Shown here piece by piece: positions 4,064 through 43,610 of a stretch of DNA of 64,000 bases (within the stretch, counting starts at the first letter, position 1; each line of letters begins with the position of its first letter). The DNA is taken from positions 66,238-130,237 of the forward strand of contig JAZDJQ010000012.1 of the NCBI GenBank assembly GCA_043803765.1, read 5' to 3'. The translations under genes and the position numbers were made by a program. This stretch comes from Candidatus Iainarchaeum sp. GTDB lineage: Archaea; Iainarchaeota; Iainarchaeia; Iainarchaeales; VGJJ01. The notes beneath the pieces were generated by a model, which saw only the letters and a program-made list of their open reading frames with translations, was not told the DNA's origin and did no database searches.

Positions 4064-4110
4064 ACCTTTCCTTATCCTACTTAATAATGGAGGAAACGGG
4101 TTTTTGGGCT

Positions 4111-4125
4111 ATTTAAAGGTTGAGC
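4111..4125 (-). promoter_or_regulatory. Putative TATA/BRE promoter of G0 (minus-strand GCTCAACCTTTAAATA).
   Basis: Near-identical to the G1 upstream motif. About 45 nt upstream of the G0 ATG. Confidence 0.45.
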
Positions 4126-4592
4126 TCATCATGGAGTTGGAGGAGAGGAACCCCATATTTTCTAGCAATGGAATTATACTGTTTCACTTCTTCTTCCACT
4201 TCCCTACGATGTCGAAATTTCTTTCCGCCTACTAGAATAACCACTCCTTCTCTTCTGACTCCATACTTTTGTGTGAGTGTATTCATTGATTTTTGCATTC
4301 GCAGAATGTCCATTCGAGGCATCCTAAGGGGGGGTGTGATTTTTTTTCTCTTCGCGAGCTCGCTTCGTATTATTCTCATTTGTTTAAGGAAGTGAACCGC
4401 AAGCCCTTTTTCTTTATTCACTTTGGCGTCGATGGCACGGCTCCGGTAATGGTTGAGCTTGTCTAGTAGTACTGGCAAAGGAAGAGTTGCCCTATGTTCT
4501 TTACTATTGGGATGAGTGCCTTCTCTTCCTGAAGCGTGATGGGAGAATATGCTTTCCCACCCGGGTATGAGTCGGACGCGTCTTCTTGGCAT
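4113..4592 (-). CDS. Hypothetical basic 159-aa protein between giant genes G1 and G0.
   Basis: Uninterrupted minus-strand ORF, tightly spaced (18 bp after the G1 stop, 50 bp before the G0 start). Lys/Arg-rich. No family recognised. Confidence 0.45.
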   Translation of the reverse strand: MPRRRVRLIPGWESIFSHHASGREGTHPNSKEHRATLPLPVLLDKLNHYRSRAIDAKVNKEKGLAVHFLKQMRIIRSELAKRKKITPPLRMPRMDILRMQKSMNTLTQKYGVRREGVVILVGGKKFRHRREVEEEVKQYNSIARKYGVPLLQLHDELNL

Positions 4593-4609
4593 ATGTGATT
4601 ATTTTTCTC

Positions 4610-7600
4610 CTATTTCACGATGCATTGTTGGCCTGCATTTTTTTCTTGTGATTCAATAGCATTCAGTACTTCTTTTGGGTTCCAGAAGAATTCTGTTTTT
4701 GCCCCGCTGTTGCGTACGCATACTGCTCTTTCCGTGATGAGGTTCAATATTTCTTCGATGCTGGTAAGCGTGTCCCCCGGGGTGTTTCCGGGAATAGCAT
4801 TGGTTCCGTTTAGTGGGATTCCTGCTCCGCTTATTCCTTCTCCTATGAATTGCATCTCGCTCTTCCATGCGGTGCGGTTAATACTGGATAGGCTTTCCTG
4901 CGGGGTATAGAATACGCTCTTCAAGAAAACGTTTCCTGTGTGAATCGTATCTCCGCACCATTCGAATCCATAACTAATATTTTCCTGTGGTCCCACTAGT
5001 GCACAATCCGTGTTAATTGCACTGGTATCATACTTTCGATTATATGAATCGAGGAGTGATTTGTCTTCAAAGTCTCGGCAGTTCGCTCCTACACCGTACC
5101 ATGGATTTCCCTGCACCCCGATATAGGATTGCGATGTGTCATTGTTTACTCCTACTGAATAGAATCCGAACACGTCGCTCTGGGCGCTCTTGTTTCCTAT
5201 TTTCATCATGACGGGAGTAGCGAATGAAGGCGACCATTTTATGCTCAATGAGTTCGTGCTGTTTTTTGTTACCGTGAGAATGTTTCCTCTCTCCAAACTA
5301 TTGAGTATTGTGTATGCGTTCACGGTGCTTGATTGTACGCTTGCAACGGGGGTTGAATCCGGAATATCAACGGTTACTACTTGGGAATGGGGCTCGTCAT
5401 TCACGACTATCTTTTCTCCAGAGAAGTTGACTCCGTATCCTACTCTTCCTTGTCCGTCATCCGTTCCAATCAATCCGTTGAATGGCAGGCTGTAGAATGG
5501 ACTATTATCCTCAATTGTGCTTGTCTTCTCTAATAATACGTTCACGATGGCGTCCGGTTCTTGTCCATTAACGAAACTCATTTCAGGTCCATCAAAGTTG
5601 ATATCCAATGTTACGTCGTATATTCCGGGGCCGGGCAATAGGTATCCTTCTACTGTGGGAACGCCTCCTTCTCTTTTCACAACCCAATGGTTTCTATTCT
5701 TGAACAATAATGCAATTCCATTCATGGGGTCAGTATAATACGATGGGGCGTCAAAGAAGCTTACTTTGTTGGCGTACCGGTCAAAGTCAGTAAAGAAGTC
5801 TGGACTGAATCGGTCCTGCATGAGGTGGGCACGGAAACTAACTAATTCGAGTATTTCGTCCTTTCCTATTCCGTTTGGATAATTCACTCCTATTCCCGCT
5901 TCCTCGTTTGCTGCAATAAATTCGCTCAAGCGCAATGTAGTAAAGGGTTGGCAGGCTACAAGGGCGCTGGATGTTCCAATAAAGAACTCCGTAGTAATCG
6001 TGTCGGATGCGGGAACGCTGTTGGAGCAGTTCTCACAATCCTCTGGAATAATGGTGGCCGTTATTTCATAGTGTCCTTCGGGTAAATTGGTGGCAGTGAA
6101 CCCCAAACTAACCTTGCTTCCTCCTATTGGAATCAACACCATCTTGGATTGGGTGATGGGCGCAGTGAGAGCGTCTTTTATCTTATACGAAATGCTTACT
6201 TTCGCATTATTCATTGCGGGCGTCTTGTTTTCTATTCCTACTATCATATTCACATCCGTTGGGGCTGTTTTGTCAACGCTTAATGAGGCGATTCCAATAT
6301 CGGCTGCTGGAATGGGCTGTGTTTTTACTCCTGATAATTGGTCTTCTAATGGGCACTCGAATGGGGCATTGGCTTCAATGAATTCTCGTAATAATTGTAC
6401 TTTCTGGATTAACTCGATAGAGAATTGGGTGGCGTCACAATAGATGTGCGCGCTATTCCCTTCATTATCCACTTGTCCTTGGTCGCACGCGTAGGCATCA
6501 ATGTCATTAAAGTTCCACGCAAACGCAACGCGTGGAGCCGCGTTGATTCCTGTCTTCCCTGTCTTCTCGGAGAACGTATCGCAATCCAGTGCAATGGGCG
6601 GGACTCCTGTTTTGATTAATGTTTCGGGAGTGAATGAATTATACTGCAAGTGGAACCGTGCTTTTGAATCCAATATGTCTTCCTCTTTCAAATCATCCGG
6701 TGATGGAATCTTATTCTTGTATTCAACATCTTGTGCATAAACAAATCGTTCTCCTGTTACAAGCAGGTTGCGGAAAATGGTTTCGTTCACAAACTTGGAA
6801 ATATTGGTAAACGTGAGGTTGAATGCTTCTACTCTTCCTAGTATGGGTTGTTCTAATGCAATCTTTGGAAGAATCGCCACATCGTCTTCTTTCACTTCGA
6901 TATCCTTATCCTTTACTTTCTCATCGCTTCCCTTCTCTCCTCCAATCACTTTGATTTCATCAATGACCAAATCCTTTCCAATAATCGTTACATCAAACTC
7001 CTCATCATCCGACATGAAGTAATGGGTTAGTCCGGCTACAATCGTGGTGACGGCGAATGAAACGAATGGGTTTCCAGTGCCAAGCGAAACCGCTCCCACT
7101 ACCTTGTTGAGTATTCCCCCAACGAGGGACTCGCCAATCTTGGAGCCCAAACTGGATTGTTGAGTAGCTCCCCCGCCAGTGGCATCCAATGACTTAGTTT
7201 CGCCAGTACCCGCAACAAACCCTGTGATGGGGGATGTGGGAATCGACTCGACAGAATATTTCTTAGTAATAGCCTCAACTTTTTCATTGTCAGCAGGGAC
7301 AATAGTTAACATGTACCCCCCATCGAAAACACCTCCTTCAATCGTTGCACCTACAACTGTAATAGTTGATCCTGAATGAGAGAATTTAACGCCATTAATG
7401 GTAAGTTCTTTAGCATATTTATCGGCCGCTGTGGCATTCTTGAATGTTATCGCGTTACCCGCCGTAGATTTCACATCGCCTTCCTCAATCCAAAATTCAG
7501 TTCCTTTACCAGAATTTTTTTCACCAGAATCGGGAGAGAGATCGCTTTTCGGTTCCTCTCCATTCCCTGGGGTTCCCTCTGTCTCCGTAACCTCATCCTT

Positions 7601-10600
7601 CTCTCCGCCAAACGCGTCTTTTCCTTCGAGTAGGTTGCTCACCATGGTGACGACTCCCGCGACGATTCCTGCTTGGAGTCCAACGCAGAGGCTGTCTTTC
7701 CAATCCTTTGGAATTTCGATGACAACGTTTACTCGTTGCTCGGTGCAGTAATTGTCCAATCGTGCGGTATCAAATCCGTCGAAGTCATTTTTCGGGTCAT
7801 CGTACACGTCGAACTCGTAACGATTCAATTGCAGACAGGCATTCGGATCGCGTATGCGGGCGCGGAGTATTTTGTTTTGGGATGGAACCTTGTTCTCGAA
7901 TCCTTCCACGTTAACATAGATGGGGTATTGTCCTTGGTCGAGTTCGTTATCCCCCACTTCGATTGCTTTTTTGTCGTCTCCTTGTAGTTTGAATGTTTTG
8001 GATGCTACTGCTAAGTCTGTTTGGAGTGCGAATTCTACTGGTGCACCGCATCCTTTTGTTTCAATCGTGATGGTGTCTTTCTTTCCGGGTTGTAAATCAA
8101 TTATTTCTTTATCGTAGGTTATACAATCCACTAAGTTCACTACGGTTATTTGAGTGTTTATTTTTCCGCTTAATAGTTGCGGTTTTCCTTCGAGTGGATT
8201 GGTTGCTTGTATTTCCACGTCAAATATTCCTTCTCCTTTTATTCCGCCGTAGGGGGCGAAATCAAGTCGTGCAATTAATATGTCTCCTGCGGGAATAGTG
8301 GGAAGCACGTTGGAATAAAATCCGGAACGGACCTTAGCTGCCCCTATTGGGGTGGGGGATGTTTGTTCGAACACGCTCAGTGTGGTTTCACCCAATTCGT
8401 TTCCTGCCCAATTTGCTTTCGTTTTTAATTCCTTGAGAGGGGCAGGTATTCCTCCGATACTGCAATTGTTCTGTATTTGGAATTCGAATGTGACACTTTG
8501 TCCATCCGTGCTGGTAATCCATGCTCGAGGTGCGATGTTGAGGCACGTGGGGTCGTCTACTTCGCTTGCAACCGAGAGGGAGTATTTGATTGGTAATTCT
8601 AACAAATACTCGTTTCCATAGCTTTCTATTTCAACGTTGAGCGTGGCTTCCACGTCCTCATGTTCAATTAGGTTGAGTGCTTCGGGTGTTAGAACGGACT
8701 TGAGATTAACTTCGAGTGTGCTGTTTTTTTGTATGACGATTCCTTCGTAGGGCAGCAGGTTGGAATTGGTTTTCTCTTTGTCGATGAATCCTTCCAAATT
8801 TCCTAATAGGGAAAGTTGTTTTACTACTACGGGAATGCCCATTTCGTTGGTAATCGTGAATGTTTTAGATTTCTCTGATTCGGTCTTAACGTTGATGTTT
8901 ATTCCGAGTGTTTCGGGTTTGAGTGATACCACTTTGTCTGAAATGGTGATGATTTGTACATGGGGATTGTATTCTTCTTTCTCTACTTTTAGTGTTATTT
9001 TCTTTCCTGGCAGTTGAGCAGGCATTTCTATTTCTGCGTTTCCTGCCGCATCCGTGTATTTTGTTGCCAGAACAACCCCCAGATTGGTTGTGAGCGAAAC
9101 AAGCGCGTGTTCCACTTCATTCTGGGTTGCACTATCCTCTACGTGCAGATTGAGGGTGAAGGGTACGTTGCTTGGATAGTTTTCCGGTTCGATGGTGACG
9201 CTTAATTCTTTGTCCCCGTTCACATTTATTTGGATGTTTTTGCTGAATACCACTTGGTAGTCGGATACCAATTCAATAGTAACAATGGTTGTTCCCACTT
9301 GTTTTGGTTTGAAGTGGATGCTTCCCCCTATTTTTTTCTGCGGGGTGAAGTCTCCCATGGGAATAGGATTTGGGAATTCGTAATCGTTTACCGTTCCACT
9401 TAGTTTGAGTGCGTCCGCGTTGTATATCTCGTACGTTGTAAAGTCGAATCCTTCGCTGGATGATTTGATGCGTAAATTGGAATTGGTATGGAATGCGTTT
9501 CCATTGTTGAGCAGGTTGAACGTGAGCGTATAATTCTGGAATACGGATGCATTGTATTGTTCCGTTACGTCTTCAATGAGTTGTTTGTCTTCATCTAATA
9601 TGGATGCATCGAAGCAGAATTGGGAATCGCATACGGTGGTAACGCCTACTTGGTAACTGGCGGATTTGGTGGCAGCATATAATTCATCTGCGGGGTTGGC
9701 ATCCTTAGGGTCGCGCAGAATTTCACTATTCTCTGCGTGTACTTTGTAGGATAAGAATAGTATGTCTTGGGGTAATGCGGTGGTGCGCACGTGAAGGGTT
9801 GCCTCCAATTCGTACACGCCGGGATTAGGTCCGAAAATGTGGGCATTAATCCATTTTGCGTTACCAAACGTAATGCTTTCCCCGTCAACGTTCACTCCAT
9901 TGGCCGGGTCCCATGAGCTTCCTTTTACTATTCCTGCTTTGGGCATGTTGATCGAGGAAATGTACCATTCGTCTTTCTCTACGATGTCCTTGTCTCCCGT
10001 GCGGATGTGAATGGTCATGTCGTCTAATTCATCTTGTTCTTCTGGAATCTCTACGAGGAATTTGGCGATGTAGTCTTTTCCTTTTCCTACTCCCGTGACT
10101 ATTTTTCCATCCGTTGTAAAGAGTCCTACTAGTTCGATTGAAATATTTCCTTTTGGTTTAGTTGGAAAAAGTATCGCATTGAATGACTGCGTGCTGTTTG
10201 GAAGAATGGGTTTTTGTATGGTAGTAAGAGTAGCATAATTTGTTTTGCTTACCACCAAAAATACGTCTTTATCCGCTTTGCTGTCCTGCCCGTTGCTTGG
10301 CAGGACATAGGTTCCGTTGCTGTCCGTTAGGTCGCTTCCGATGAGTTTGTTTTTGAACGCATTATACACACTCACTTTGGCGAATGGAACGGGCATTCCG
10401 TCTTGGTCCATCACATGAACACTTACAACGCCGTCGGGTATTTCTAATGTAAGTTGATAATCATACGTTTCAGGGTCCGAAATGTCAAAGAAGTGTTCTT
10501 CACTGAACCCGGTGAGGGATGATTTGTAGGCGAATGCTTGATAGTTTCCCGATATGACACTGTTGAATGTTCCTACTCCATTCACGTCCGTTAGCACGGC

Positions 10601-11953
10601 TTCGTATGGAGAAAGAAATCCCGTATCCGCATCATATAATACTACTTTGGCATCGGCGATGGGTTCCTCATCTTGGTCTACTAAAAATACTTTTAGTTTT
10701 GCCGTATTCGTTCCGGTTGCTTTGTCGAGTGCAAATGAAACATTCGTTTGTCCTCCTGAAACGGTTTGCTGGGATGGAATGTAATCATTCTTGGATGCGG
10801 AAACCGTGTATTGGATTGTTTTATCTGGAATGGGAATAGTTGCTTTTCCATCCGTTCCAGTAGTAATAGTAGTGAGTATTGTTTTTTCTTGTTTGAGTTT
10901 GATAATAGCATCATTCAATGCGGTGTTTGTTTTCTTGTCAATAACAGTAACATTCATCATGGATGCGGCGTTCTTGTTGACGATGATGGTTGTTGTGACG
11001 GTGCTTCCGGATGCAACTATTACACTGTCTTGTGCGCTCGTGAATACTCCATTGATGGGGTCGGAAGCTACGAGGGTGTATTCTCCCGCTCCTACTGAAA
11101 AAGTAGTCGTTCCAAGTGCATCCGTGTTTCCATTATCCACTATTACTCCGCCGAGTTGTACGCTCACATTTAGTCCTGGAACGGGTTGTGTGGTTTGATC
11201 TAATACGGTTACTACAATCGCGGCATCCTTTACTAGTTTGGGTGTGAGAATAATCGAGTACACGTCTTTTTCTGCTGTGAGCGGATAGGATTGAACATCC
11301 TCATATCCGTTGGAGTGAATGGTTACGCTGAGGGGGATGCAGTCCGCATTGGGAGTAATCACGAACAATCCGCCTGTTCCGCTTACGGATTGAGGAGGTG
11401 TTCCATAGGCGGTGCTGCACGCGAATGATAATTCTGCATCACCCAGTATGGGTTGTCCGACCGAATTGACGAGTTTGATTGTCTTGGATAAGTTTTGTGT
11501 TTGCAGTTCGGATAATTGGATTATTTCCATTTGGTTGCCGGCGATGGTGACGGACTTCTTGACTATCTCATATTTGGATAAGTCGATTTGGTAATCCACT
11601 TTGGTTCCGCTTGGAATAAACAAGTCTATTTTTCCTTCGCTGTCCGTAGTAATAGTTTCTTTAGTGGTATTATAGGAAAAAGCAATGGGAACGTTGGGCA
11701 GTGGAGAGGACTCTTCATCTACTACTTGGAAGATGGCGTGAACATTTTCTCCTTGAATGAATCCTCCAAACGAGAGGAAGAGAAAACCTAATCCGAATAA
11801 CACGAGCAATGCGAATAATGCAAAACTGGGGATGCGTTTGTCGATGGGGTCGATAATTTTGTATACAGGCAACCCGTGCGTATCCAAGAAGTCGAGTACC
11901 GCGTACCATTTATCTTCTGTCGCGAAATAAAAGTCCTTGATGATGTCGCCCAT
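4610..11953 (-). CDS. Giant surface/adhesin-like protein G1 (2447 aa): conserved cytoplasmic N-motif, TM anchor, long repetitive ectodomain.
   Basis: 7.3-kb ORF. N-terminus MGDIIKDFYFATEDKWYAVLDFLDTHGLPVYKIIDPIDKRIPSF followed by a hydrophobic helix. Many beta-rich repeats with a TVxVxDxxGxPxxxAxV pattern (carboxypeptidase-regulatory/Ig-like). Abundant N-x-S/T sequons. Confidence 0.9.
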   Translation of the reverse strand: MGDIIKDFYFATEDKWYAVLDFLDTHGLPVYKIIDPIDKRIPSFALFALLVLFGLGFLFLSFGGFIQGENVHAIFQVVDEESSPLPNVPIAFSYNTTKETITTDSEGKIDLFIPSGTKVDYQIDLSKYEIVKKSVTIAGNQMEIIQLSELQTQNLSKTIKLVNSVGQPILGDAELSFACSTAYGTPPQSVSGTGGLFVITPNADCIPLSVTIHSNGYEDVQSYPLTAEKDVYSIILTPKLVKDAAIVVTVLDQTTQPVPGLNVSVQLGGVIVDNGNTDALGTTTFSVGAGEYTLVASDPINGVFTSAQDSVIVASGSTVTTTIIVNKNAASMMNVTVIDKKTNTALNDAIIKLKQEKTILTTITTGTDGKATIPIPDKTIQYTVSASKNDYIPSQQTVSGGQTNVSFALDKATGTNTAKLKVFLVDQDEEPIADAKVVLYDADTGFLSPYEAVLTDVNGVGTFNSVISGNYQAFAYKSSLTGFSEEHFFDISDPETYDYQLTLEIPDGVVSVHVMDQDGMPVPFAKVSVYNAFKNKLIGSDLTDSNGTYVLPSNGQDSKADKDVFLVVSKTNYATLTTIQKPILPNSTQSFNAILFPTKPKGNISIELVGLFTTDGKIVTGVGKGKDYIAKFLVEIPEEQDELDDMTIHIRTGDKDIVEKDEWYISSINMPKAGIVKGSSWDPANGVNVDGESITFGNAKWINAHIFGPNPGVYELEATLHVRTTALPQDILFLSYKVHAENSEILRDPKDANPADELYAATKSASYQVGVTTVCDSQFCFDASILDEDKQLIEDVTEQYNASVFQNYTLTFNLLNNGNAFHTNSNLRIKSSSEGFDFTTYEIYNADALKLSGTVNDYEFPNPIPMGDFTPQKKIGGSIHFKPKQVGTTIVTIELVSDYQVVFSKNIQINVNGDKELSVTIEPENYPSNVPFTLNLHVEDSATQNEVEHALVSLTTNLGVVLATKYTDAAGNAEIEMPAQLPGKKITLKVEKEEYNPHVQIITISDKVVSLKPETLGININVKTESEKSKTFTITNEMGIPVVVKQLSLLGNLEGFIDKEKTNSNLLPYEGIVIQKNSTLEVNLKSVLTPEALNLIEHEDVEATLNVEIESYGNEYLLELPIKYSLSVASEVDDPTCLNIAPRAWITSTDGQSVTFEFQIQNNCSIGGIPAPLKELKTKANWAGNELGETTLSVFEQTSPTPIGAAKVRSGFYSNVLPTIPAGDILIARLDFAPYGGIKGEGIFDVEIQATNPLEGKPQLLSGKINTQITVVNLVDCITYDKEIIDLQPGKKDTITIETKGCGAPVEFALQTDLAVASKTFKLQGDDKKAIEVGDNELDQGQYPIYVNVEGFENKVPSQNKILRARIRDPNACLQLNRYEFDVYDDPKNDFDGFDTARLDNYCTEQRVNVVIEIPKDWKDSLCVGLQAGIVAGVVTMVSNLLEGKDAFGGEKDEVTETEGTPGNGEEPKSDLSPDSGEKNSGKGTEFWIEEGDVKSTAGNAITFKNATAADKYAKELTINGVKFSHSGSTITVVGATIEGGVFDGGYMLTIVPADNEKVEAITKKYSVESIPTSPITGFVAGTGETKSLDATGGGATQQSSLGSKIGESLVGGILNKVVGAVSLGTGNPFVSFAVTTIVAGLTHYFMSDDEEFDVTIIGKDLVIDEIKVIGGEKGSDEKVKDKDIEVKEDDVAILPKIALEQPILGRVEAFNLTFTNISKFVNETIFRNLLVTGERFVYAQDVEYKNKIPSPDDLKEEDILDSKARFHLQYNSFTPETLIKTGVPPIALDCDTFSEKTGKTGINAAPRVAFAWNFNDIDAYACDQGQVDNEGNSAHIYCDATQFSIELIQKVQLLREFIEANAPFECPLEDQLSGVKTQPIPAADIGIASLSVDKTAPTDVNMIVGIENKTPAMNNAKVSISYKIKDALTAPITQSKMVLIPIGGSKVSLGFTATNLPEGHYEITATIIPEDCENCSNSVPASDTITTEFFIGTSSALVACQPFTTLRLSEFIAANEEAGIGVNYPNGIGKDEILELVSFRAHLMQDRFSPDFFTDFDRYANKVSFFDAPSYYTDPMNGIALLFKNRNHWVVKREGGVPTVEGYLLPGPGIYDVTLDINFDGPEMSFVNGQEPDAIVNVLLEKTSTIEDNSPFYSLPFNGLIGTDDGQGRVGYGVNFSGEKIVVNDEPHSQVVTVDIPDSTPVASVQSSTVNAYTILNSLERGNILTVTKNSTNSLSIKWSPSFATPVMMKIGNKSAQSDVFGFYSVGVNNDTSQSYIGVQGNPWYGVGANCRDFEDKSLLDSYNRKYDTSAINTDCALVGPQENISYGFEWCGDTIHTGNVFLKSVFYTPQESLSSINRTAWKSEMQFIGEGISGAGIPLNGTNAIPGNTPGDTLTSIEEILNLITERAVCVRNSGAKTEFFWNPKEVLNAIESQEKNAGQQCIVK

Positions 11954-11992
11954 ACTATCGTGCTCCTACTGCACGAAAACCCTGTTTTAGCG

Positions 11993-12008
11993 TATTTAAA
12001 GGTTGAGC
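11993..12008 (-). promoter_or_regulatory. Putative TATA/BRE promoter of G1 (minus-strand GCTCAACCTTTAAATA), about 40 nt upstream of the ATG.
   Basis: 16/17 nt identical to the motif upstream of G0 at 4111..4125. The TTTAAATA core is archaeal TATA-like. Confidence 0.45.
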
Positions 12009-12011
12009 CTT

Positions 12012-12494
12012 TTACACTCCTAATCCGGCAAAAGGGAGCCATTTTTCCATTTGTTCCGCGTTTGGAAGAATTCCAAAGAGGTACCATACGACGATACTGC
12101 ATAATACGATGAATCCGAGATTGAGGAATGCGGCAACCATCAGTCCGGGTAGTCTCGTTTGGGCGTTCGAATAGATATCAACCAGTGTTAAATCGCCGAG
12201 TGTTTTTCCATATATTCCGGCTGCAATCGTGCACACGCCTAACAATAATCCTGCTACTGGAAATGCATGCACCCATCCGCTTTGCCAAAAACCGATTCCC
12301 ATGATTAATAGCGGGGTTAATCGTCCGAAGAATAACCATCCAGAAAAAAATCCTGCGATGATGAATCCGATGATAACCATTAATGCGGGAATGTCAACTG
12401 CTGGAACACTACCAAGCCGTGCGGCCATTACTCCTACAATCCATGCAAATCCCAATACGAGTGCCGTGTTGCTTCCCATGTATACGTGTCTCAA
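12012..12494 (-). CDS. Small polytopic membrane protein (about 4 TM, 160 aa) between G2 and G1.
   Basis: ORF with four hydrophobic helices. Starts 23 nt after the G2 stop. No family recognised. Confidence 0.55.
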   Translation of the reverse strand: MRHVYMGSNTALVLGFAWIVGVMAARLGSVPAVDIPALMVIIGFIIAGFFSGWLFFGRLTPLLIMGIGFWQSGWVHAFPVAGLLLGVCTIAAGIYGKTLGDLTLVDIYSNAQTRLPGLMVAAFLNLGFIVLCSIVVWYLFGILPNAEQMEKWLPFAGLGV

Positions 12495-12517
12495 CTTTTT
12501 CCTTTATTTGCTTATCA

Positions 12518-20042: not shown

Positions 20043-20131
20043 CCCACACAACCTGTTATACCTACCAAAGCCCGTTTTCCCCCTTTTTATATGTTGGGGG
20101 AAAAACGCCTAATAGTGTCCTTTTACTCATT

Positions 20132-21847: not shown

Positions 21848-21895
21848 CCTGCGTTCAACGAGAAGGGCCTTTTTCTATCTTTCTTTTATTGAATG

Positions 21896-24800
21896 CTATT
21901 TTGGACTGCAATCGTCCAACCACGCAGCAGCAGGAACCCGTTGATCAGGAGAAAGAATGTCAATGCTAATCTTCTCGCTCTTCCCTTCTCCTTCTCCCGG
22001 GCTTACAACGAATTTGTATGTGTGTCCTTTCTCGAATACGATGTTATTGCTCACGGGGTCGATGACGTTCACCGACTCCGCTCCGAGGGATATTTTGTTT
22101 TCTATTTCATCGGACAAGTCGCTTCGGTAGGCGGCGTATCCCGCGACGCCTCCAATTCCCCCGCATACTAATCCGCGTAGGAATCCTGTTGTTTTCTTGA
22201 CTGCTTTGGTTTGGATGAATTTTTCGGGAACGGTGATTTTTCCTGCTTTGTCTGCGGCTTCGGTAACCGCTTTTTTGATTGAGTTTTTGGCAACATCAAT
22301 AGGGCCCGTTCGGAGGAGGGTATTTTTTCCGTTTATTATGTTATTTTTCAGACCGTTTAAAGTTTCATCATATTCACTCGTAAGAATTCTGAGACTCGCT
22401 TGTGCTCTCTTCTCGAGTTGTTCGAATTCGGCCACATTAAAATTTGGGTTTGCCGAATATTTGGTCTTGAGATTGGCGAATCCATCCGCTATCTTTTGTT
22501 TTTCTGCATCGAATAATTCAATCTTATTGGCTAACTGTGTCCGAATAGGAGGATCGGGAGGAGCAGGAACTTTTATTTTTCCTACTTTAACCTGTTTAGA
22601 TGTCCATTTGCTTAGATACTCGTCCGCAACCTTCGTGTTGTTAACTATTTTTTTGGCAACGGATTCATCCACTTCCTTAAGAAATGCTAAATGAGCTTGA
22701 TCGATGGCTGCTTTGGGATCCACATACGTGAGTTTTTTGACAGGAATGGGGCTTTTGATCGCTTTGATTAAGTTAGTAGTTTCCGCTGCGAATAAAGAGG
22801 AATTAGCGGGTTCCATTTCCATGCTTTGGTCTAATGGGGATGTGGCAAAATCTCTTGGAACGCCATAAATGGTTTCAGTGGCATCCACAATATTTTCTAG
22901 TACTGGAATGCCGTCTGCTTTTTCCTTGTTCAATTCATAAAATCCTATTCCTGTTCCAACACCACAAGTAATTCCGCAATCAACTGCCGCCGCGGGAAGG
23001 GTTGTTCCTAATGTAAATACGGCTGCCACTCCATGGCATGCAAGGCATGATGCTATGCATGTTCCTCCAAACCATGCCATTGCTGCCTGTTGTTTCCCTT
23101 TGAATTTTTCCTGATATACCGGGTCGTCGCTTGCGAGTATTCCTTGTCCTTGATAGGCGAAGAATGCGTCTCCTGCCTTCTTTCCATTGGCTGCTTCGGT
23201 TACTGCTTGTTTGAGTGTTTTGCTGCTTACCGGGTCGTCCCAGTCGATGGTAGCGTACCATACTCCTGTTCCTTTTTCATACGCTTTAGCAAGAGCGTCA
23301 TCCGCGTCCATCGTGCAGGTGCGCAATTCAAATGTGAGAGGCCCCGCTTTGGTATTATCGAGTAACCGGGTGGCGCTTGTCTGGATGGTCATTTTGTTAG
23401 CAAGGTGTTGTGTTTCCGCGTTGGCGGTGGCGCATAATAGAATGTCTTTTTGGTATACTTGTTCTTTCGTGTCAAAGGGGAGTGCGTAGGGGCTTCCGAT
23501 GGTTAATTGGTCTCCGGGAATAGCACCATCGGTGTTGCTTCCTTTTTTCTCATACAAGTTGAGTGTGAGTAGTCCGGGCATGGGATCATTTCCATTGGGT
23601 TCGAGGGAATAGGTTGCTTCGCTTACTTCGGTTGACCTCGTTGATAGTTCACAGCATGTTGGATTGGGTCGCACGATTAGTCCGCCTTCTTTTGTTCCGG
23701 GTAATGCGCATCCTTCGAATGTGAATTTTCCTACATCCTTTACGGCGGAGATGCGCCATGTTTGTTCATCTTTTGTGATGCACCCGTTCACGTTTTTTCC
23801 TAGGCTTGTAATTATTTTTCCCGCTTCGATTACAGCTGCTTTTGGAATGTCGCTTCCGCTTCCCCTTATTGTGGTAATGATGCGTTTGGTTCCGTCCCCA
23901 TGCGTGGCAGGATCAAGTGTGAGTTCGACTACGCTTTGGGTTAGTTTTCCTATTTGTAGGTCCATTCGGTTGCTTCCCGTGTTTTGAATCGCCCTGTCTT
24001 TTGTTCCAAATACGGTTTCGGCGAGCCATTGAGCGGCCTCTTCTAATGCGATTGGATACTTGACTACTCCTAATAGTGTTTGTTTGTTGTTTAATGCAGT
24101 GAGTGACCTGTCTTTTGGTAGGAAGTTGGCCGCATTATATATTTTGTCTGCGCATTCGGCTGTTTTTTGTCTTGGGGAAATGAGTTTTACTGCCACGTTG
24201 ATTGCATCCGGTTGGAGTTGGTTTCCTACTACTTCCACGCTTCCGATAATAGCAATGCGGTATTTTCCGCATCCTTGTATTTCGGGTAAAAATATTTTAT
24301 TCCCGAGTGTTGTTCCGAGTCGTGCTTCGAATCCTGCGTCCGCGTCATCTCCTCCTAGTGAAGTGAGTGTTTCGGTTTGCATTCCGCTTAATCGGGGGTA
24401 TGTTCCATCTTTCATTACGAATTCGAGCAGATTGGGAGTAATTACGTCGTGTTGCAGGTACAAATCGATGGAGGAGGACTTTATTCCTAATTGTTCGAAT
24501 GTGCAATAGTGTTGGGTCAAATCACAATTTTTGAATAAGGATGCGTCGTTTTTCTTTGATTGTAGTTGCTGGGCGGCTTTGGCAATGTGTTGTTCGATGA
24601 GAGTGGATAGCATGTTGGCTGCTTGTTCCGCATCGCAGTAAGCCTGCGAGCATTCGTTTTTTTGGGCGAGTTGAGGAAATTTGATTTGGGCCATTCCTCC
24701 TTCACAGTAGGGTACTTCGATCGCGTTGGATGATTGAGTGCTTTCTAATTCGTTTTCTCCAAGGGCTATTTCAATATTGATGGGGTTTGATTCTACTGCC

Positions 24801-27800
24801 TTCTGGGACAAAATCATGATTCCTTTTACTCGAATGGGGAAAGTGGCCTTGTAGGGGTTGCTCTTGTTGAGAGTAATATTGAATTCTCTTTCTTCGTCCT
24901 TTTCGAGTGTGTCGGAGAACTCGACTGGAGTTATTCCGAGTGTGTTTCCGGATGCGTTGTCCGGATTTACTTGCGTGATGCGCACGGGTTCCAAACATTT
25001 GTTTGAAACCGTGATGCGCTTGGATAGTGTCCCTTGTATTTGGGAGGAAACAAAGCTTATTGGAGTGTTGAATGCGCTTACTTCCAGGCAGGAAGTAGCC
25101 CCTGTTTGAATGTACACGTCTACTGTTTTGAGTTGGATTCTTTTTCCGTCAACTACTCCAGTCAAAACGAGGCGTTGGGATCCTAATTCTGCTTTATCGG
25201 TAGTACTCTCACCGATGATGGCGAGCGGCGGATAAAGTGTTTGTCCGGGGGACAACGCACTGTCTTGGGAATAGTATCCTGTTTGGTAATATCCTCCTGC
25301 GTAGGTATCATTTCCGCTAGTAGATGTGGAAGAGGAATGATTGTTCTCCAGTTTGAGTGTAACCCCTTCTATTTTGTCTCCTTCGAGTGTTCCGCGTATA
25401 TCATAGATGAGCGATGCTCCGATGTTGGTGATGGGAACGCTGACTCGGTCGGTTGCTTTGGTGTTTCCTGCTTTTACCAAGTTGAGCGTCACGGAAAGCG
25501 GTGTTTGGAGTGATTTTGATTTGTCTTGGAATATAATATCGAGCGGCAGGCTTGCGGTTAGTTGCGGCGCCTTGAACATGAGAGCATAGTTTGCTTGTGC
25601 GGGAACAAATCCTGCGCGGAACAAACGATTCGATAGGGTAAAGTCCACTTGTCTTTCTTGTCCATTTCCTAGTCTCAGTTGCGAGTCGACGGCTGCGATT
25701 TTCAATCCATCTACTTCTAACTGTCCGCCTTGCGTGCTGATTCCGGGAATGAGAATGAGTTCTTCTCCGCAATTGTTTTTTGCCTTTACGCTTACTCGTT
25801 TGTTTTCCGCGTTCTGATAATATCCTTGATCGTCATACCCTAAGTTGTTGTATCCGTTGGATAAGTAATTATACTGGTTGGGAACAGCGTTATTTCCATA
25901 ATAGGAGGGTGTTGGATTGTAGGCTCCTCCCGTACCGTACATGTTTCCATAGGGTTGTGTTTCTCCTGACAATACGACGGATACGCGTTCCTTGTCAAAT
26001 GTTAGACAGGAGGAATCGAGTTGTTTGTTATACGTTGCTTCTAATTGTCCTTCCGTTTCCACGGGGAATGCGTCATTGATTTCTCCTCTTACTTTTAGTT
26101 TTCCCGCTCCTGACAGCACGGAAGTGTCTTCCGCATTCCCGGTATAGTGAGCGATTATTACCAAATCGCCTTTTCCATTGGCTGGAATAACGGGGATGAT
26201 TCCTACTTCAATGAGGATGTCTTTTGGGAATAAGTCATATTCAAGGAATTCTCCCGTAACATTCGTAACAGGTTGATTCGTTTTGTTCGTAAGAACAATG
26301 TTTTGGGTTGCCTGCATTTGCCCATAGGAAATGTGAATCGCGTTTTTCTCATTCATGGATAAGGGAGAATCGATTCCTACGTTGAGCGTGTCCTCAAAGT
26401 CAACAAATCCCGGTACTTTTACTTTTACGTGATAAAATCCGGGGGAAAGGGGTTTGTTGAATAGGTATTTTCCGCTTTCTCCCTTGTTGAGCGTGTTTTT
26501 TCCTTTGATGCTTCCAGCGAACTCTCCTGTTATACTAGTAAGCGTGATAAGTGCATCCGTAATAGGCGTTCCTTCTTCATCCGTGATGGTAAGTAAGAAT
26601 GATTCGTTTGGATTCACGTGGTCGGGCAGTGTAACGCGTAACAATTGTGCTTCTACGATGGGGAAAGGAATCGTTTGACTAAGTTGCGCGTTGTTTGAAA
26701 TGATTTGAAGAGTAATGCTCGCATCTCCCACTTCTTCCGTATAGAAATGAACCCTTGCTTGCGTTCCATTTGTTCCGCTCACCGCGGGAATGTTCACGCT
26801 AATGCTCGTGTCCTTGTTTCCATTGTTTTCTATCTTTCCAAATGTATTCACTTCGGTTTTAGTAAATACTATTAGCGGTTCGTCCGGGTCGGTTTGTGCT
26901 TTAATCACCGTTCCGTTGAGAGCGGGTTGTAGTTCCGTATTGGCAATAAGTCCTTCTTTTGGAATAGTAGAAGTAGAGAGTGATTGGCTTCCTTGTATGA
27001 GAGAGGGAAGCAGTGTTACTTGTAATGCGTAGGGTTTTTGTGCGACTGCTTGAAATGCCCCTGCATCAAATGAGCGGGCGTCCTCGTCGATGAGGGAGAT
27101 GACCGCACAAATTCCATTTTGGCAAAAAGGTTGTGCGTCAAACACGGGAACCCCCGTTGAGAGTGTTTCGGCATACAATCCTGATTTGGTTGAAACGAAT
27201 GAGCTTGTTCCTAATTCGGTATCGTTGGGCGTTCGAAATGTTTGAGTTACGTTGAGCGTAAAGGCACGGTAATGCAGTTCATATAATCCGGCAGGGCTTC
27301 CTTCCCTTGCACGCAGTCGTATATCAAATGTACTTGTTCCGGTAGGATTCATTCGTGTTATTTCAACCCATTTGGCTAGCGTGTTGGGACTAGCGACTGT
27401 TTTCCTGTCTTTTGCCTCATTCCCTGGTTTGGGAAGCGGTGTCCATGTTTTCCCATATGTAATAAATCCCGATTCCCCATTCACGCCGACTATTCCGACA
27501 TATTGCGAGTCCACGTTTCCCATCGTGTCAGGTCCTGTTCGGACAAGTAATCCTCCTTTGTTCATTCCGCTTGGCCATGCGACACTAAATCGGGCGAACA
27601 CGTCTTGTTCGGGGGATATTCCGGGTGCGGCTTCCCCGTTTGGAGTGAACAATCCCATGTAGGTAATCGTAGGTGCGTTTCCGCTTGCCGTCGCAACGTC
27701 ATCGAGTACCCATTCGAGTTGTGTTTTTCCTGCAATGGAAATGGTTTGGGTGAATGTTTTTCCGTCATCGCTCTCCGCGTGCATGTTAATCGTATCGTTG

Positions 27801-29500
27801 GGCGTGGTGCTTACAAATTCTATTATCCCGCTTGTTGTGTGTTCTTCTGCAAATGTGTTTCCGCCCGTGTCTTCGATGGTGATGGTTCCGATGAATGGGT
27901 TTCCATTAAGGTAGTGTGCATTTAGTGTTACTCCATGTAACCCGTCCGATAGCGTGAGGATAACTTTGTTGAGTCCCGGAATGATTTGGATTTGTTGTTC
28001 CGCTGATTCGTCTCCTTTTTCTGCTCGTACGCGGATTGTTTTTCCTGTTTGAATGCGCGATGTAAAACTCCCCGCGGCATCCGTTGGCTTTCCGCTCACA
28101 AGAGGAAGAAACTGTCCATCCACTTCTTCGTCGATTGAAACGCTCGCGGAGGGGGCGGCCGCTCCATTGGATTCGTTTACAAACACGGTTAGAATTCCCG
28201 CACTCCCGCTCGTGAATGGTGTTAAGTTGAGTGTCATGACTGCGGAATCGTCCTCGATTTGTAATTGGGTCCAGTCTACGCTTGCGCGTGTGGGGAAAAA
28301 GTTGGGGTGAAATCCCAGCAAATAATACGTGTTCACTTGATTCAGTCCGCCGAAAATAACTTCTCCTGAAAAGTTGCTTGTTTCATGGTCGATGCGTGCA
28401 TAGGATGCGTCCAGCACGTCTACATCTACTCCGTCTAATGGTTGAGTAGAATTCCCGTTCTGCGTAAGCACGACTAGATTGACTCCTCCATTCTGCAAGG
28501 GAATGAGCATTGTTTCTGTATCATTGCGCAGTGTTTTTCCTCCGGGATATATTGATTCGCTTGAAAAGGTAACGTAGTTTTCTTTCTTTACCGTTACCCG
28601 CACAACGTGACCTTTAGGCAACTGTTCAGCGTGTGTTCCCGTTCCAGTATCAACGTCCGTAATAATCTCATTTGTTTGGGCATTCTCAATTGTAATATGC
28701 ACATCGGACAAAGGAAATTGGGTCTTGGCATCCACTACTTTTATTTCCAATAAGCTGGGGCCGTTTGAAGCGCCGGCTTTGGGTGTCATTTCTTTTGTTT
28801 TAACATCTCCGCTTGTAAATGTAATGAAATCATGCAAATCTTCATAGTTGGTTGCCTTTATTGAGAGTGTAATTTCCTGGTTGAGCGGGACGTTTAACAA
28901 TGCAATTCCATCTCCTCCCGGATACGTTGTGAGTATGCTTCCTCCTCCGACCCATTCTGCTGTAATGGTTGCATCCTTGATTGTGGTTCCTGTTTCTCCA
29001 TCAATGAGCCGCAGTTTTCCCACAATGGCTTCATTGTCTCCTTTCAATAATAGTTTCAGGTTTTCCGTATCGGGATTGAAGTAGGATGTTTTTTCTCCAT
29101 ATCCTTGTTTGGTCGCCGTGATTTTCAATTCACTAGCAGGAAGAATTCCAGATAGGGTAATGGTTTGTCCATCCGATGCGGTCATTTCTTTGAGTAGTTT
29201 TCCATCCCCGTCATAGATGCGCACGGTTACATCACTTAATGAAAGTCCTTTTTCATCTTTCAATGAAAGTGTAAGCGAAACATCTTGTGATGAAATGGCA
29301 GTGGAGGCGAAAAATAGAATACTTAGTAGTAATATCAGCAATCCTGCCGTGAAGGGCATTGCAGGAACTCCTTTGGTTTCAAGAAAGTCATTGTATGCCC
29401 ATGGAAGTCCAATTCCTTTCTCTTCAAAGAAGTCGAGAATCCCATAATAGGCATCCTCTGCCTTCATGTAAAAATTCCCAAGCGTGTCGCTCAATCCCAT
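21896..29500 (-). CDS. Giant surface protein G3 (2534 aa).
   Basis: N-terminus MGLSDTLGNFYMKAEDAYYGILDFFEEKGIGLPWAYNDFLETKGVPAMPF plus TM, a more diverged copy of the motif. Long repetitive ectodomain with Ig-like repeats. A tatatata TATA-like box lies about 35 nt upstream. Confidence 0.9.
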   Translation of the reverse strand: MGLSDTLGNFYMKAEDAYYGILDFFEEKGIGLPWAYNDFLETKGVPAMPFTAGLLILLLSILFFASTAISSQDVSLTLSLKDEKGLSLSDVTVRIYDGDGKLLKEMTASDGQTITLSGILPASELKITATKQGYGEKTSYFNPDTENLKLLLKGDNEAIVGKLRLIDGETGTTIKDATITAEWVGGGSILTTYPGGDGIALLNVPLNQEITLSIKATNYEDLHDFITFTSGDVKTKEMTPKAGASNGPSLLEIKVVDAKTQFPLSDVHITIENAQTNEIITDVDTGTGTHAEQLPKGHVVRVTVKKENYVTFSSESIYPGGKTLRNDTETMLIPLQNGGVNLVVLTQNGNSTQPLDGVDVDVLDASYARIDHETSNFSGEVIFGGLNQVNTYYLLGFHPNFFPTRASVDWTQLQIEDDSAVMTLNLTPFTSGSAGILTVFVNESNGAAAPSASVSIDEEVDGQFLPLVSGKPTDAAGSFTSRIQTGKTIRVRAEKGDESAEQQIQIIPGLNKVILTLSDGLHGVTLNAHYLNGNPFIGTITIEDTGGNTFAEEHTTSGIIEFVSTTPNDTINMHAESDDGKTFTQTISIAGKTQLEWVLDDVATASGNAPTITYMGLFTPNGEAAPGISPEQDVFARFSVAWPSGMNKGGLLVRTGPDTMGNVDSQYVGIVGVNGESGFITYGKTWTPLPKPGNEAKDRKTVASPNTLAKWVEITRMNPTGTSTFDIRLRAREGSPAGLYELHYRAFTLNVTQTFRTPNDTELGTSSFVSTKSGLYAETLSTGVPVFDAQPFCQNGICAVISLIDEDARSFDAGAFQAVAQKPYALQVTLLPSLIQGSQSLSTSTIPKEGLIANTELQPALNGTVIKAQTDPDEPLIVFTKTEVNTFGKIENNGNKDTSISVNIPAVSGTNGTQARVHFYTEEVGDASITLQIISNNAQLSQTIPFPIVEAQLLRVTLPDHVNPNESFLLTITDEEGTPITDALITLTSITGEFAGSIKGKNTLNKGESGKYLFNKPLSPGFYHVKVKVPGFVDFEDTLNVGIDSPLSMNEKNAIHISYGQMQATQNIVLTNKTNQPVTNVTGEFLEYDLFPKDILIEVGIIPVIPANGKGDLVIIAHYTGNAEDTSVLSGAGKLKVRGEINDAFPVETEGQLEATYNKQLDSSCLTFDKERVSVVLSGETQPYGNMYGTGGAYNPTPSYYGNNAVPNQYNYLSNGYNNLGYDDQGYYQNAENKRVSVKAKNNCGEELILIPGISTQGGQLEVDGLKIAAVDSQLRLGNGQERQVDFTLSNRLFRAGFVPAQANYALMFKAPQLTASLPLDIIFQDKSKSLQTPLSVTLNLVKAGNTKATDRVSVPITNIGASLIYDIRGTLEGDKIEGVTLKLENNHSSSTSTSGNDTYAGGYYQTGYYSQDSALSPGQTLYPPLAIIGESTTDKAELGSQRLVLTGVVDGKRIQLKTVDVYIQTGATSCLEVSAFNTPISFVSSQIQGTLSKRITVSNKCLEPVRITQVNPDNASGNTLGITPVEFSDTLEKDEEREFNITLNKSNPYKATFPIRVKGIMILSQKAVESNPINIEIALGENELESTQSSNAIEVPYCEGGMAQIKFPQLAQKNECSQAYCDAEQAANMLSTLIEQHIAKAAQQLQSKKNDASLFKNCDLTQHYCTFEQLGIKSSSIDLYLQHDVITPNLLEFVMKDGTYPRLSGMQTETLTSLGGDDADAGFEARLGTTLGNKIFLPEIQGCGKYRIAIIGSVEVVGNQLQPDAINVAVKLISPRQKTAECADKIYNAANFLPKDRSLTALNNKQTLLGVVKYPIALEEAAQWLAETVFGTKDRAIQNTGSNRMDLQIGKLTQSVVELTLDPATHGDGTKRIITTIRGSGSDIPKAAVIEAGKIITSLGKNVNGCITKDEQTWRISAVKDVGKFTFEGCALPGTKEGGLIVRPNPTCCELSTRSTEVSEATYSLEPNGNDPMPGLLTLNLYEKKGSNTDGAIPGDQLTIGSPYALPFDTKEQVYQKDILLCATANAETQHLANKMTIQTSATRLLDNTKAGPLTFELRTCTMDADDALAKAYEKGTGVWYATIDWDDPVSSKTLKQAVTEAANGKKAGDAFFAYQGQGILASDDPVYQEKFKGKQQAAMAWFGGTCIASCLACHGVAAVFTLGTTLPAAAVDCGITCGVGTGIGFYELNKEKADGIPVLENIVDATETIYGVPRDFATSPLDQSMEMEPANSSLFAAETTNLIKAIKSPIPVKKLTYVDPKAAIDQAHLAFLKEVDESVAKKIVNNTKVADEYLSKWTSKQVKVGKIKVPAPPDPPIRTQLANKIELFDAEKQKIADGFANLKTKYSANPNFNVAEFEQLEKRAQASLRILTSEYDETLNGLKNNIINGKNTLLRTGPIDVAKNSIKKAVTEAADKAGKITVPEKFIQTKAVKKTTGFLRGLVCGGIGGVAGYAAYRSDLSDEIENKISLGAESVNVIDPVSNNIVFEKGHTYKFVVSPGEGEGKSEKISIDILSPDQRVPAAAWLDDCSPK

Positions 29501-29563
29501 ACCTTTTCCCTAATCAAACGCAGTTCTTGAGTATATATAAATGAAGGGTGTTTTCCGCAATAA

Positions 29564-30097
29564 CTAGACTAATTCCTGCGCATGAAGCCGCGTGATGATT
29601 TGATGCCGGTGTACCCATCCCGCGTATATCAGGGCAAACCCTGCAATGAGCAGGACGCGGAATAACACATCGTGCGTGAGCATGGCAAATGAAAGGGGAG
29701 TGTGTTCCAATTGGAGAATGGTAACCATCATGCGTGCTAAATTAAATCCATAGAGCAGGATGATTCCAATGATGATTCCTTTGATGCGCGCATACAACGA
29801 ATGTTTCTTCGTTGCCAGGATGGCGGTTCCAAGCAAAATGAATTCAATTAATCCCGTACATCGTGGGGAAATCTCAATATTTTTTCCATTCATCCAAAAT
29901 GAAATGGGATTGTTTCCATCGGTTGTTTGAATTCCTACTCGATTCAATAGTTCGCGCACATGTTCTGCTTCAATGATTTGCAAACGATATTCGTGTGGTG
30001 AAAAAAAAAGGAAGAAAATAGTAAATAATACTCCCCACCCTACAAGGAAAGTAATCAGTGTTTTTCTCCATTCGGTTGGGGAATGCAGGTTAACCAT
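29564..30097 (-). CDS. 177-aa polytopic membrane protein, candidate minimal exosortase/archaeosortase-family transpeptidase.
   Basis: About 5 TM helices. Cys80 sits in ISPRCTGL (compare the CSG active-site context). Arg122 is in GFNLAR and Arg164 follows, so the Cys-to-Arg spacing is +42/+84, similar to the ArtA catalytic triad spacing (+41/+80). Family assignment is from memory of motifs, not a search. Confidence 0.4.
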   Translation of the reverse strand: MVNLHSPTEWRKTLITFLVGWGVLFTIFFLFFSPHEYRLQIIEAEHVRELLNRVGIQTTDGNNPISFWMNGKNIEISPRCTGLIEFILLGTAILATKKHSLYARIKGIIIGIILLYGFNLARMMVTILQLEHTPLSFAMLTHDVLFRVLLIAGFALIYAGWVHRHQIITRLHAQELV

Positions 30098-30128
30098 TAT
30101 AAAGTAGCCCGGGTTCGCCTAATTAAAG

Positions 30129-33301: not shown

Positions 33302-33391
33302 GGATAAATTCTTCAGGAATCCTCTTTTTAACGCGTGGCGGTGGCGTGCCAACGGCATATTTATATTGTTTTTCTTACTTTTCTTACTTGT

Positions 33392-33649
33392 ATGACAGAT
33401 GTGGCGATTGTAACCGTAAGCGAAAAAGGGCAGATTGCCCTCCCTAAAAAAACGCGGGAGCGATGGGGAATTCATAAGGGGGACAAATTATTGTTGTTGG
33501 AAAACAAGGGAAAAATCGTTTTGGCACCCGTTAAAGGGTCAAAAGAAGCTGCGGATGTGGATGAGATGCAGTGGATAATGGGGGTGTCCGCTCAAGTCTT
33601 GAAGGAGGATTGGGATTACAAGGGGGATGATGTCTGGGATGAGTTATGA
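33392..33649 (+). CDS. AbrB/MazE-type antitoxin (SpoVT/AbrB swapped-hairpin domain).
   Basis: MTDVAIVTVSEKGQIALPKKTRERWGIHKGDKLLL is a typical AbrB/MazE fold signature. Overlaps the downstream toxin gene by 23 nt. The ORF track starts at GTG 33335; ATG 33392 is preferred. Confidence 0.7.
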   Translation: MTDVAIVTVSEKGQIALPKKTRERWGIHKGDKLLLLENKGKIVLAPVKGSKEAADVDEMQWIMGVSAQVLKEDWDYKGDDVWDEL

Positions 33650-40455: not shown

Positions 40456-40566
40456 TTATGCAGGTATCTTTAGTCTAAAAGTAATGGCTTGCGGATACGT
40501 GTAAGGGAGCAGGTTTGTCGTTGCCGAGGCCTTCTTTATAAAAACGACAAGTGTTCTTCACAAGGA

Positions 40567-42903: not shown

Positions 42904-42960
42904 ATGGAAAGAAAAAGAGGAGAATGCGCTGTGCGAAAATTTTATCCAATTAGAAAAAAA

Positions 42961-43434: not shown

Positions 43435-43458
43435 TCAAGGGATGCTGGCATAAACAGG

Positions 43459-43560: not shown

Positions 43561-43610
43561 AACCTTTTTATAGACCCAGACTCTCGTTAAACGCTATAGG
43601 TGATGCATGC

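Follow-up and report, generated by a model that had tools for sequence, protein, structure and literature searches.

A minimal archaeosortase-family protein at the head of a conserved array of giant surface-protein genes in Iainarchaeia

We identify a small membrane protein of the exosortase/archaeosortase family at the head of an array of giant genes in Candidatus Iainarchaeum sp. (JAZDJQ010000012.1, a 173-kb contig of a metagenome-assembled genome). The stretch of DNA analyzed, hereafter the window, spans 64,000 nucleotides; the sortase gene lies on its minus strand at 29564-30097, encodes 177 residues and is followed by four genes for giant proteins, G1 to G4, that alternate with small genes. 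Judged by profile scores and gene order, the protein belongs to an unnamed sortase subfamily of Diapherotrites/Iainarchaeia and is a fixed component of a conserved ~30-40 kb cell-surface locus. This locus is among the most conserved features that we find in the lineage. We propose that the sortase-family protein acts as a cysteine protease or transpeptidase dedicated to this locus, maturing at least one protein of a surface apparatus through a non-canonical signal, a reading that we judge slightly likelier to be right than wrong.

Curated models make the family assignment solid. The 177-residue protein scores 39.8 bits against TIGR04178, the exo_archaeo signature (cut-off 23), and 27.4 bits against PF09721 (cut-off 25.7), and TIGR04178 is matched by all 121 of its aligned relatives. 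A sequence-only reading of the same DNA had suggested an archaeosortase here, and both scores, above their curated cut-offs, bear this out. At family level the identity is already in public annotation, where an NCBI protein 100% identical to the open reading frame (ORF) is named 'archaeosortase/exosortase family protein'. No cut-off is reached among the named subfamilies (ArtA-ArtH, XrtA-XrtY, pacearchaeosortase, heimdallarchaeosortase and the cyanoexosortases); scores against cut-offs, in bits, are 32.7 against 170 for XrtX, 31.1 against 125 for XrtM, 29.4 against 125 for ArtD, 28.3 against 150 for ArtB and 18.8 against 80 for pacearchaeosortase. Six orthologs that likewise accompany giant genes (loci L006, L009, L010, L012, L013 and L015 of our comparison) score 26-48 bits with the signature, above its cut-off. 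Together with the protein of the window, these giant-associated sortases reach at best 28-44 bits against named-subfamily cut-offs of 75-200. Since all seven pass the signature and fail every subfamily cut-off, the models place them in a subfamily that has no name. Relatives are numerous and divergent: an exhaustive HMMER search with the sortase returned 173 cluster representatives, nearly all of 150-220 residues and only ~5 of them at 40% identity or more, and no solved structure with similarity in sequence or fold was found.

Four residues are conserved almost universally, as would be expected if the enzyme is active. Across the 121-sequence alignment of relatives, C80, N119 and R122 are each present in 121/121 and H142 in 120/121; W161 is kept in 119/121, and position 147 is R in 89 sequences, K in 9 and Q in 17. 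The critical residues of ArtA are C173, R214 and R253 (PMC9263693), and the C80-R122 spacing of 42 residues compares with 41 for C173-R214. A Cys80/Arg122/Arg164 triad in a core of about five transmembrane (TM) segments had been proposed from the sequence alone. Its first two members, C80 in ISPRCTGL and R122 in NLAR, hold up well. The third does not: R164 is present in the window protein, but only 8/121 relatives have R at this position, where W is commonest, and it is already missing in a relative 46% identical to the window sortase (P0002). The third Arg of ArtA most likely corresponds to R147, within an HDxLFR motif. An AlphaFold2 model built from this alignment (predicted local distance difference test 95, predicted template modelling score 0.85) lays out a helix at 7-53, a beta-hairpin at 66-75 right before C80, and helices at 83-95, 101-132, 135-162 and 164-173. 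The protein has four hydrophobic membrane helices, not five, and a beta-hairpin predicted to be extracellular. Because its basic segments are the loop TKKHSLYARIK and both termini, the positive-inside rule would place C80, R122, H142 and R147 on the outer face. By the same helix layout and rule, R164 would close the last TM helix on its cytoplasmic side, on the face opposite C80. We infer that the conserved candidates for a catalytic site are C80, N119, R122, H142 and R147, located where a four-helix core meets the outer face.

All genes of the array read on the minus strand. The sortase gene stands at its head, as had been noticed, 63 bp before G1 (21896-29500; 2534 residues), which combines an N-terminal module and a TM helix with Ig-like/CarboxypepD_reg repeats and, at the C-terminus, a tip domain closed by a Cys. 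Next comes p571 (20132-21847), a 571-residue type IV pilin-like (minor-pilin-like) protein with the class III signal RA/FTLFTALL (the slash follows residue -1) and one C-terminal Cys-rich acidic repeat. The paralog G2 (12518-20041; 2507 residues) has the N-terminal module, a TM helix, four CarboxypepD_reg domains, and Big_1 and MG-like domains. Its open frame reaches 20068 (2516 residues); the true start is likely the ATG at 20041, since the resulting MGL start matches its paralogs. A membrane protein with four TM segments, p160, follows (12012-12479; 155 residues from the ATG at 12479, 160 from a TTG at 12494), then G3 (4610-11953; 2447 residues), a paralog with the same module and TM helix, and p159 (4113-4592), a basic soluble protein of 159 residues located between G3 and G4. 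From the sortase gene through p159 the intergenic gaps are 63, 48, 90, 38, 58 and 17 bp. A small same-strand gene thus stands close behind each of G1-G3, where the sequence-only reading had placed it, with gaps of 17-90 bp across the array. That reading took the array to end with the 159-residue gene and overlooked G4 (1-4063), which comes 49 bp later; p159 is therefore interleaved between giants too. G4 is cut by the window edge: its frame begins with an ATG at ~4063 and stays open for at least 1354 codons, up to the left edge. The protein starts MGLREIYHAGEGKWYALLDKID...KIIPSF, the same N-terminal module, followed by a TM helix, and is 28% identical to G3 across 1362 residues. Plus-strand ORFs of at least 100 residues at 381-803, 1032-1466 and 3723-4043 are antisense artefacts opposite G4. 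The four giants cover at least 26 kb of the window, equivalent to ~2.5% of a genome when set against the 1.05 Mb of a complete relative (CP064981). TATA-like boxes are seen in the spacers upstream of G1, G2 and G3 (29501-29563, 20042-20131 and 11954-12011) and in the divergent spacer ahead of the sortase gene (30098-30128). The box TTTATATATA lies ~30 nt 5' of the G1 ATG, and CTTTAATTAG and TACTTTATA both lie within the 31-bp divergent spacer. Such sequences suggest that several array genes have their own promoters, with short leaders or none.

Gene order is conserved far beyond the window. Loci were gathered through relatives of the sortase and homologues of p571 and compared by tblastn and family hidden Markov models; L006 and L011 belong to one genome (the complete Ca. 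Iainarchaeum CP064981), and L001 equals L003. The sortase gene lies 50-950 bp upstream of a G1-type giant, on the same strand, in 11 of the 12 genomes with this region visible: the window, L001, L002, L004, L006/L011, L007, L009, L010, L012, L013 and L015. Across these the identity of G1 drops from 63% to 27%. Its orthologs directly follow a sortase homologue in ten genomes besides our own, and a further ortholog, in L014, has no sortase next to it. The order G1, p571, G2 and small 4-TM gene is kept in nine genomes, and G3 comes next in eight. The interleaving first read from one array thus recurs for the p571 and 4-TM slots, and the same order in up to 12 independent genomes lies far beyond chance. 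Orthologs of G2 are 28-62% identical, and those of G3 are present in L008, L009 and L011-L016. Two loci depart from the order: L010 has no intact G3 behind its 4-TM gene, and the G3-type gene of L008 is preceded by a different gene. The G2 ortholog is found in two ORFs in L011 (11697-19709; 2107 + 491 residues) and L016 (4630-11941; 1919 + 549 residues), which might stem from a frameshift, from faulty assembly or from a real division of the gene. Contig L003 (JAGVNS010000120.1), labelled 'Thaumarchaeota archaeon DeMMO3_24', is identical to the JGI contig L001, carries the sortase, p337 (see below) and G1, and is probably misbinned or mislabelled.

The giants share an architecture more than a sequence. 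G1-G4 are collinear and only 22-28% identical, which makes them ancient paralogs and not recent duplicates. Ig-fold repeats of the CarboxypepD_reg, Big_1, MG and SpaA-like types are present in their N-terminal halves; for the C-terminal halves, Pfam, NCBIfam and PDB gave no match. Each giant, in all genomes and paralog classes, begins with a net-acidic module of ~45 residues followed by a single TM helix, and the module, Y...E[DG].[YW]Y..[LM]D.[LI][DE]..G[IL]P[VL]Y..[IV]D.[ILV][DE]...[IV]P[SA][FL], is kept across paralogs whose ectodomains have diverged to 22-28% identity. It matches no family, and a search for other proteins that carry it returned 7 fragmentary matches only. The residues before the helix are KG/[IV]PA in G1-type giants, QN, NN or RN in the G2 type, and KR, KK, KI or KV in the G3/G4 type; a prepilin (class III) signal is ruled out for the G2-G4 types, whose -1 residue is neither G nor A. 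The other end has a conserved Cys and then a tail that varies, with no TM helix: G1 reads W[LV]D(D)C-x, and G2/G3 read C...IIW[ND]L...C-x; the partner Cys upstream suggests a disulfide. We considered the terminal Cys (CSPK, CIVK) as a CaaX-like or MYXO-CTERM-like signal and rejected it, given that the tail runs from 1 to more than 100 residues with no TM helix after it. In the window, G2 has a Pro-rich tail beyond this Cys. In L015, a distant lineage, the G1 ortholog (1624-9960) ends its conserved part with ...AEWLQNC, continues into a Pro/Thr/Ala linker and closes with a Glucosaminidase (peptidoglycan hydrolase) domain (residues 2656-2770; Pfam score 33.2 bits, cut-off 30.2). Both the window G2 and the L011 G1 have Pro-rich tails that look like this linker with no module behind it. 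The Glucosaminidase tip supports the C-terminus as the outward, modular tip of an N-terminally anchored stalk, and such a domain hints that the giants may target bacterial cell walls.

The interleaved p571 carries a class III signal, with a basic residue, G or A at -1 and a hydrophobic helix of ~20 residues. This signal is ER-A/FTLFTALLSFILILLAGLLV in the window and KG/FTL[FY]TALL in orthologs, with F11, L13, T15, A16 and L17 invariant in 49 sequences. The protein also has the core of a pilin fold, in which a long N-terminal helix packs against a beta-sheet. The pilin-like N-helix noticed from the sequence alone is thus confirmed, and p571 is a large type IV pilin-like protein. Among those window proteins that were scanned, none was recognized as a prepilin peptidase. 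The protein is more conserved than the giants beside it (75% against 57% identity in L002). In L008, a 693-residue N-anchored protein (814-2895, plus strand) lies 5' of the G3-type gene, with at least five CGDGxC..GE....C..DC repeats and an enzyme-like C-terminal domain; it shares its repeat type with the p571 C-terminus and is apparently tandemly duplicated (ORF 26-772). Homologues of p160, at 38-59% identity, follow G2 in L009, L010 and L011, and L012-L016 carry positional counterparts of 150-170 residues with 3-5 TM segments, mostly four, whose sequence has drifted. Metagenome scans with p571 and with the 4-TM protein returned no relatives. The basic p159 (isoelectric point 11) has no TM helix and no relatives in the compared loci, none of which reaches past the G3 ortholog. 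Divergent from the sortase gene across the 31-bp spacer lies p337, a polytopic membrane protein of 337 residues (30129-31142, plus strand), whose homologues are placed divergently to the sortase in the same way in L001, L002, L004, L005, L009, L010 and L015; the gene in this position in L012 is polytopic without detectable similarity. Neither p160, p337 nor p159 falls in a known family in Pfam, NCBIfam or PDB.

Genes of a type IV pilus (T4P)-like machine lie on the far side of the sortase. A type IV pilus/archaellum-type secretion ATPase (34136-38038, plus strand; T2SSE 55 bits) contains an intein of ~500 residues (Intein_splicing 89 bits) with a LAGLIDADG homing-endonuclease domain (LAGLIDADG_3, 63 bits) at roughly residues 548-1023. 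The L005 ortholog aligns unbroken over ~1280 residues, consistent with carrying the intein; those of L002, L006 and L007 are without it, their alignments skipping residues 519-1018. These four orthologs, ~80% identical, lie 0.05-1.8 kb from the sortase, and L013 has a 49%-identical ATPase fragment ~0.7 kb upstream of its own. A TadC/FlaJ-like platform protein (40489-42903, plus strand) matches T2SSF weakly (18.9 bits, below the cut-off of 25.2); in L006 and L007 its 69%-identical orthologs adjoin the ATPase and the pilins. Two small archaeal type IV pilins (42904-44132, plus strand) of 176 residues (KG/QAFEAY...) and 173 residues (RG/QAFSTF...) complete the set, with orthologs of 52-55% identity in the same two loci. 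There the T4P-like genes abut the sortase; in the window the distance is 4-14 kb. A T4P-like gene comes within 4 kb of the sortase in the window, L002, L005, L006, L007 and L013. Between ATPase and platform genes are two minus-strand genes without family match, for a secreted protein of 599 residues with 6.3% Cys and Gly/Pro/Thr-rich linkers (38102-39901) and for an N-anchored protein of 134 residues (39906-40310).

We propose that a minimal archaeosortase-family membrane cysteine protease or transpeptidase heads a surface locus made up of a T4P-like machine (ATPase, TadC-like platform and two pilins), the sortase, in most cases with its divergent polytopic partner, and three or four giants. 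The giants, of ~2,500 residues, would each be held by one N-terminal TM anchor, with the Ig-like-repeat ectodomain facing outward and ending in a modular tip. The enzyme would be dedicated to this apparatus, recognizing at least one protein through a non-canonical element and processing, releasing or re-anchoring it at the outer face of the membrane. Ig-repeat stalks, pilus genes and one peptidoglycan-hydrolase tip together suggest a probable role of the apparatus in attaching to other cells or attacking them.

Several observations weigh against this proposal. No protein of the locus has a motif-TM-basic signal, C-terminal or internal. The single element common to all giants, a Pro-containing motif abutting the TM helix, resembles a sorting signal in its sequence order, but it would lie on the cytoplasmic side and the sortase active site on the outer face, and no conserved motif was found just outside the TM helix. 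The topology and catalytic geometry of the sortase themselves come from a predicted model. In L014 the giant array is kept with other genes in place of an adjacent sortase, and conserved adjacency could in general reflect co-regulation of surface biogenesis and not the pairing of an enzyme with its substrate. We also examined two segments of G1 as internal tripartite signals, a hydrophobic patch around residue 2150 that is rich in Cys, Ala and Gly, and the segment GLVCGGIGGVAGYAAY, rich in Gly, and rejected both. Neither has a Pro motif or a basic cluster, and both are weakly hydrophobic and poorly conserved beyond the close clade.

A conventional archaeosortase acting on scattered substrates with C-terminal tripartite signals, the synteny reflecting co-expression or clustering, is possible, if on the doubtful side. 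A candidate substrate is a 1653-residue secreted protein with TIG/IPT domains and MopE-like Cys motifs (49777-54738, minus strand). It has a signal peptide and a tail ...CYLPIPES-TSLFFIAALNPLILLFQFFL-RLIGF, in which a Pro-containing motif (PIPES), a hydrophobic stretch of ~20 residues and a basic residue (RLIGF) follow one another. ArtD, whose cognate signal is PIP-CTERM, is among the better subfamily scores of these sortases (29-44 bits, below its cut-off). Every characterized member of the family uses C-terminal signals (PMC6098224), and no array protein carries a sorting signal: as first observed, none of the giants ends in a classical or other TM tail, and among exported proteins of the window a hydrophobic C-terminal tail is seen on the 1653-residue protein alone. 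This protein is also alone with a canonical-looking tripartite tail among ORFs of at least 150 residues in the window and 15 loci. Yet this one tail in 64 kb has no counterpart in ~200 kb of sortase-adjacent sequence of other genomes. NCBIfam sorting-domain models (PGF-, PIP-, PEF-, VPXXXP-CTERM and others) gave no match at E up to 10 in the last 99-199 residues of this protein or of the giants. The gene lies 20 kb from the array, and in other loci it shows no synteny with the sortase. The conventional reading, moreover, leaves unexplained why the sortase stays directly upstream of G1 down to 27% identity.

That the sortase homologue is no protease here, serving instead as a structural or assembly subunit (a membrane scaffold) or acting on a non-protein substrate, seems very unlikely to us. 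The absence of a substrate signal and the tight pairing with the conserved polytopic p337 would suit such a role, and to our knowledge some subfamilies of the exosortase family, such as XrtG, have no identified target. Against it stands the invariance, in 121 relatives, of the Cys and Arg that are critical in ArtA (PMC9263693), along with the conservation of N119 and H142. Least credible is an incidental interleaving of unrelated fillers between recently duplicated giants, which the orphan p159 and the departures in L008 and L010 might suggest but which is refuted for p571 and the 4-TM genes by the age of the paralogs, by p571 outlasting its giant neighbors in conservation and by both slots being kept in nine genomes.

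The proposal of a dedicated enzyme has a bolder extension, which we consider improbable. This would be the first exosortase/archaeosortase system whose substrates lack a C-terminal signal, the enzyme acting on the N-terminal Pro-motif/TM module of the giants or on p571 to give released or lipid- or pilus-coupled forms, and sortase and T4P-like machine together deploying stalks of ~2,500 residues as adhesins or effectors, with a peptidoglycan hydrolase tip in one lineage, in a host- or prey-contact apparatus of Iainarchaeia.

PEP-utilising (PPDK/PEP synthase-like; PEP, phosphoenolpyruvate) genes stand beside the p337-sortase pair in the window (31295-33475, minus strand) and in L001 (984-5364), the latter with three partial copies and a PIN/VapB pair. 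ARAGORN and Rfam detected a single RNA gene in the window, a tRNA-Asp(GTC) at 46211-46284 (minus strand). A GatD gene and the intein-bearing ATPase of archaeal type are consistent with archaeal DNA.

Several features appear to be new: an unnamed Iainarchaeia sortase subfamily locked to a conserved surface locus, a T4P-like machine beside this locus, N-anchored giants bearing a novel module, large pilin-like and 4-TM proteins interleaved with them, and a locus free of canonical substrate signals. Neither the archaeal T4P census (PMC4858521) nor reviews of surface biogenesis in archaea (PMC6098224) nor the DPANN literature searched gave an account of them. Archaeosortases and exosortases have so far been understood through one-to-one pairing with C-terminal sorting signals, and the orphan subfamily described here is linked as tightly as any dedicated sortase system, yet to proteins without such signals. 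This makes it testable what else these enzymes recognize. For Diapherotrites/Iainarchaeia, a lineage of DPANN, next to nothing has been established about cell biology, surface structures or possible interactions with hosts. The newly defined N-terminal module of the giants, large pilin-like family, 4-TM family and p337 partner can serve as annotation models.

Among known systems, dedicated ones such as XrtM/MSEP-CTERM pair the enzyme with an adjacent target that bears a C-terminal signal, unlike the adjacent giants here, which have none. The sortase resembles the ArtA/PGF-CTERM system of Haloferax volcanii in its superfamily (TIGR04178, PF09721), polytopic nature and ArtA-like Cys-Arg spacing, and ArtA, for its part, is able to cut signals located elsewhere than at the C-terminus (PMC9263693). 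It differs in having only ~177 residues and four TM helices, residues 16-128 alone aligning to positions 82-197 of the 271 in the ArtA model (22 bits against a cut-off of 75), and in having conserved neighbors without PGF-CTERM or another tripartite signal. ArtA also serves many scattered substrates, whereas the enzyme here would be dedicated to its locus. With the small subfamilies ArtB, ArtD, ArtE, XrtH, XrtM, XrtX and pacearchaeosortase it shares a length of 150-190 residues, the core and the signature region, but none of their models is reached (best 28-44 bits against 80-170). The ArtE of M. maripaludis, a small orphan archaeosortase homologue needed for T4P-dependent natural transformation, offers a parallel, an orphan enzyme tied genetically to a pilus-dependent process (PMC10133366).

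Closest in kind to p571 are modular pilins and, from type II secretion and type IV pili, the minor (pseudo)pilins GspI/GspK, PilV and ComP. For the giants, the nearest likeness is to arrays in prokaryotes that are reduced or symbiotic, Apilactobacillus kunkeei (Giant1-5; PMC12863079) and Omnitrophota (bioRxiv 10.1101/2023.11.21.568195), which likewise consist of several consecutive genes for paralogous extracellular proteins of 2,000-8,000 residues. The Omnitrophota preprint implicates such genes in cell-wall degradation, with which the glucosaminidase domain of the one G1 ortholog in L015 may be compared. The array that we describe differs from both in being archaeal, in the N-terminal single-TM anchor with its ~45-residue module, in the fixed interleaving of pilin-like and 4-TM genes, in the archaeosortase homologue at its head and in its linkage to T4P-like genes.

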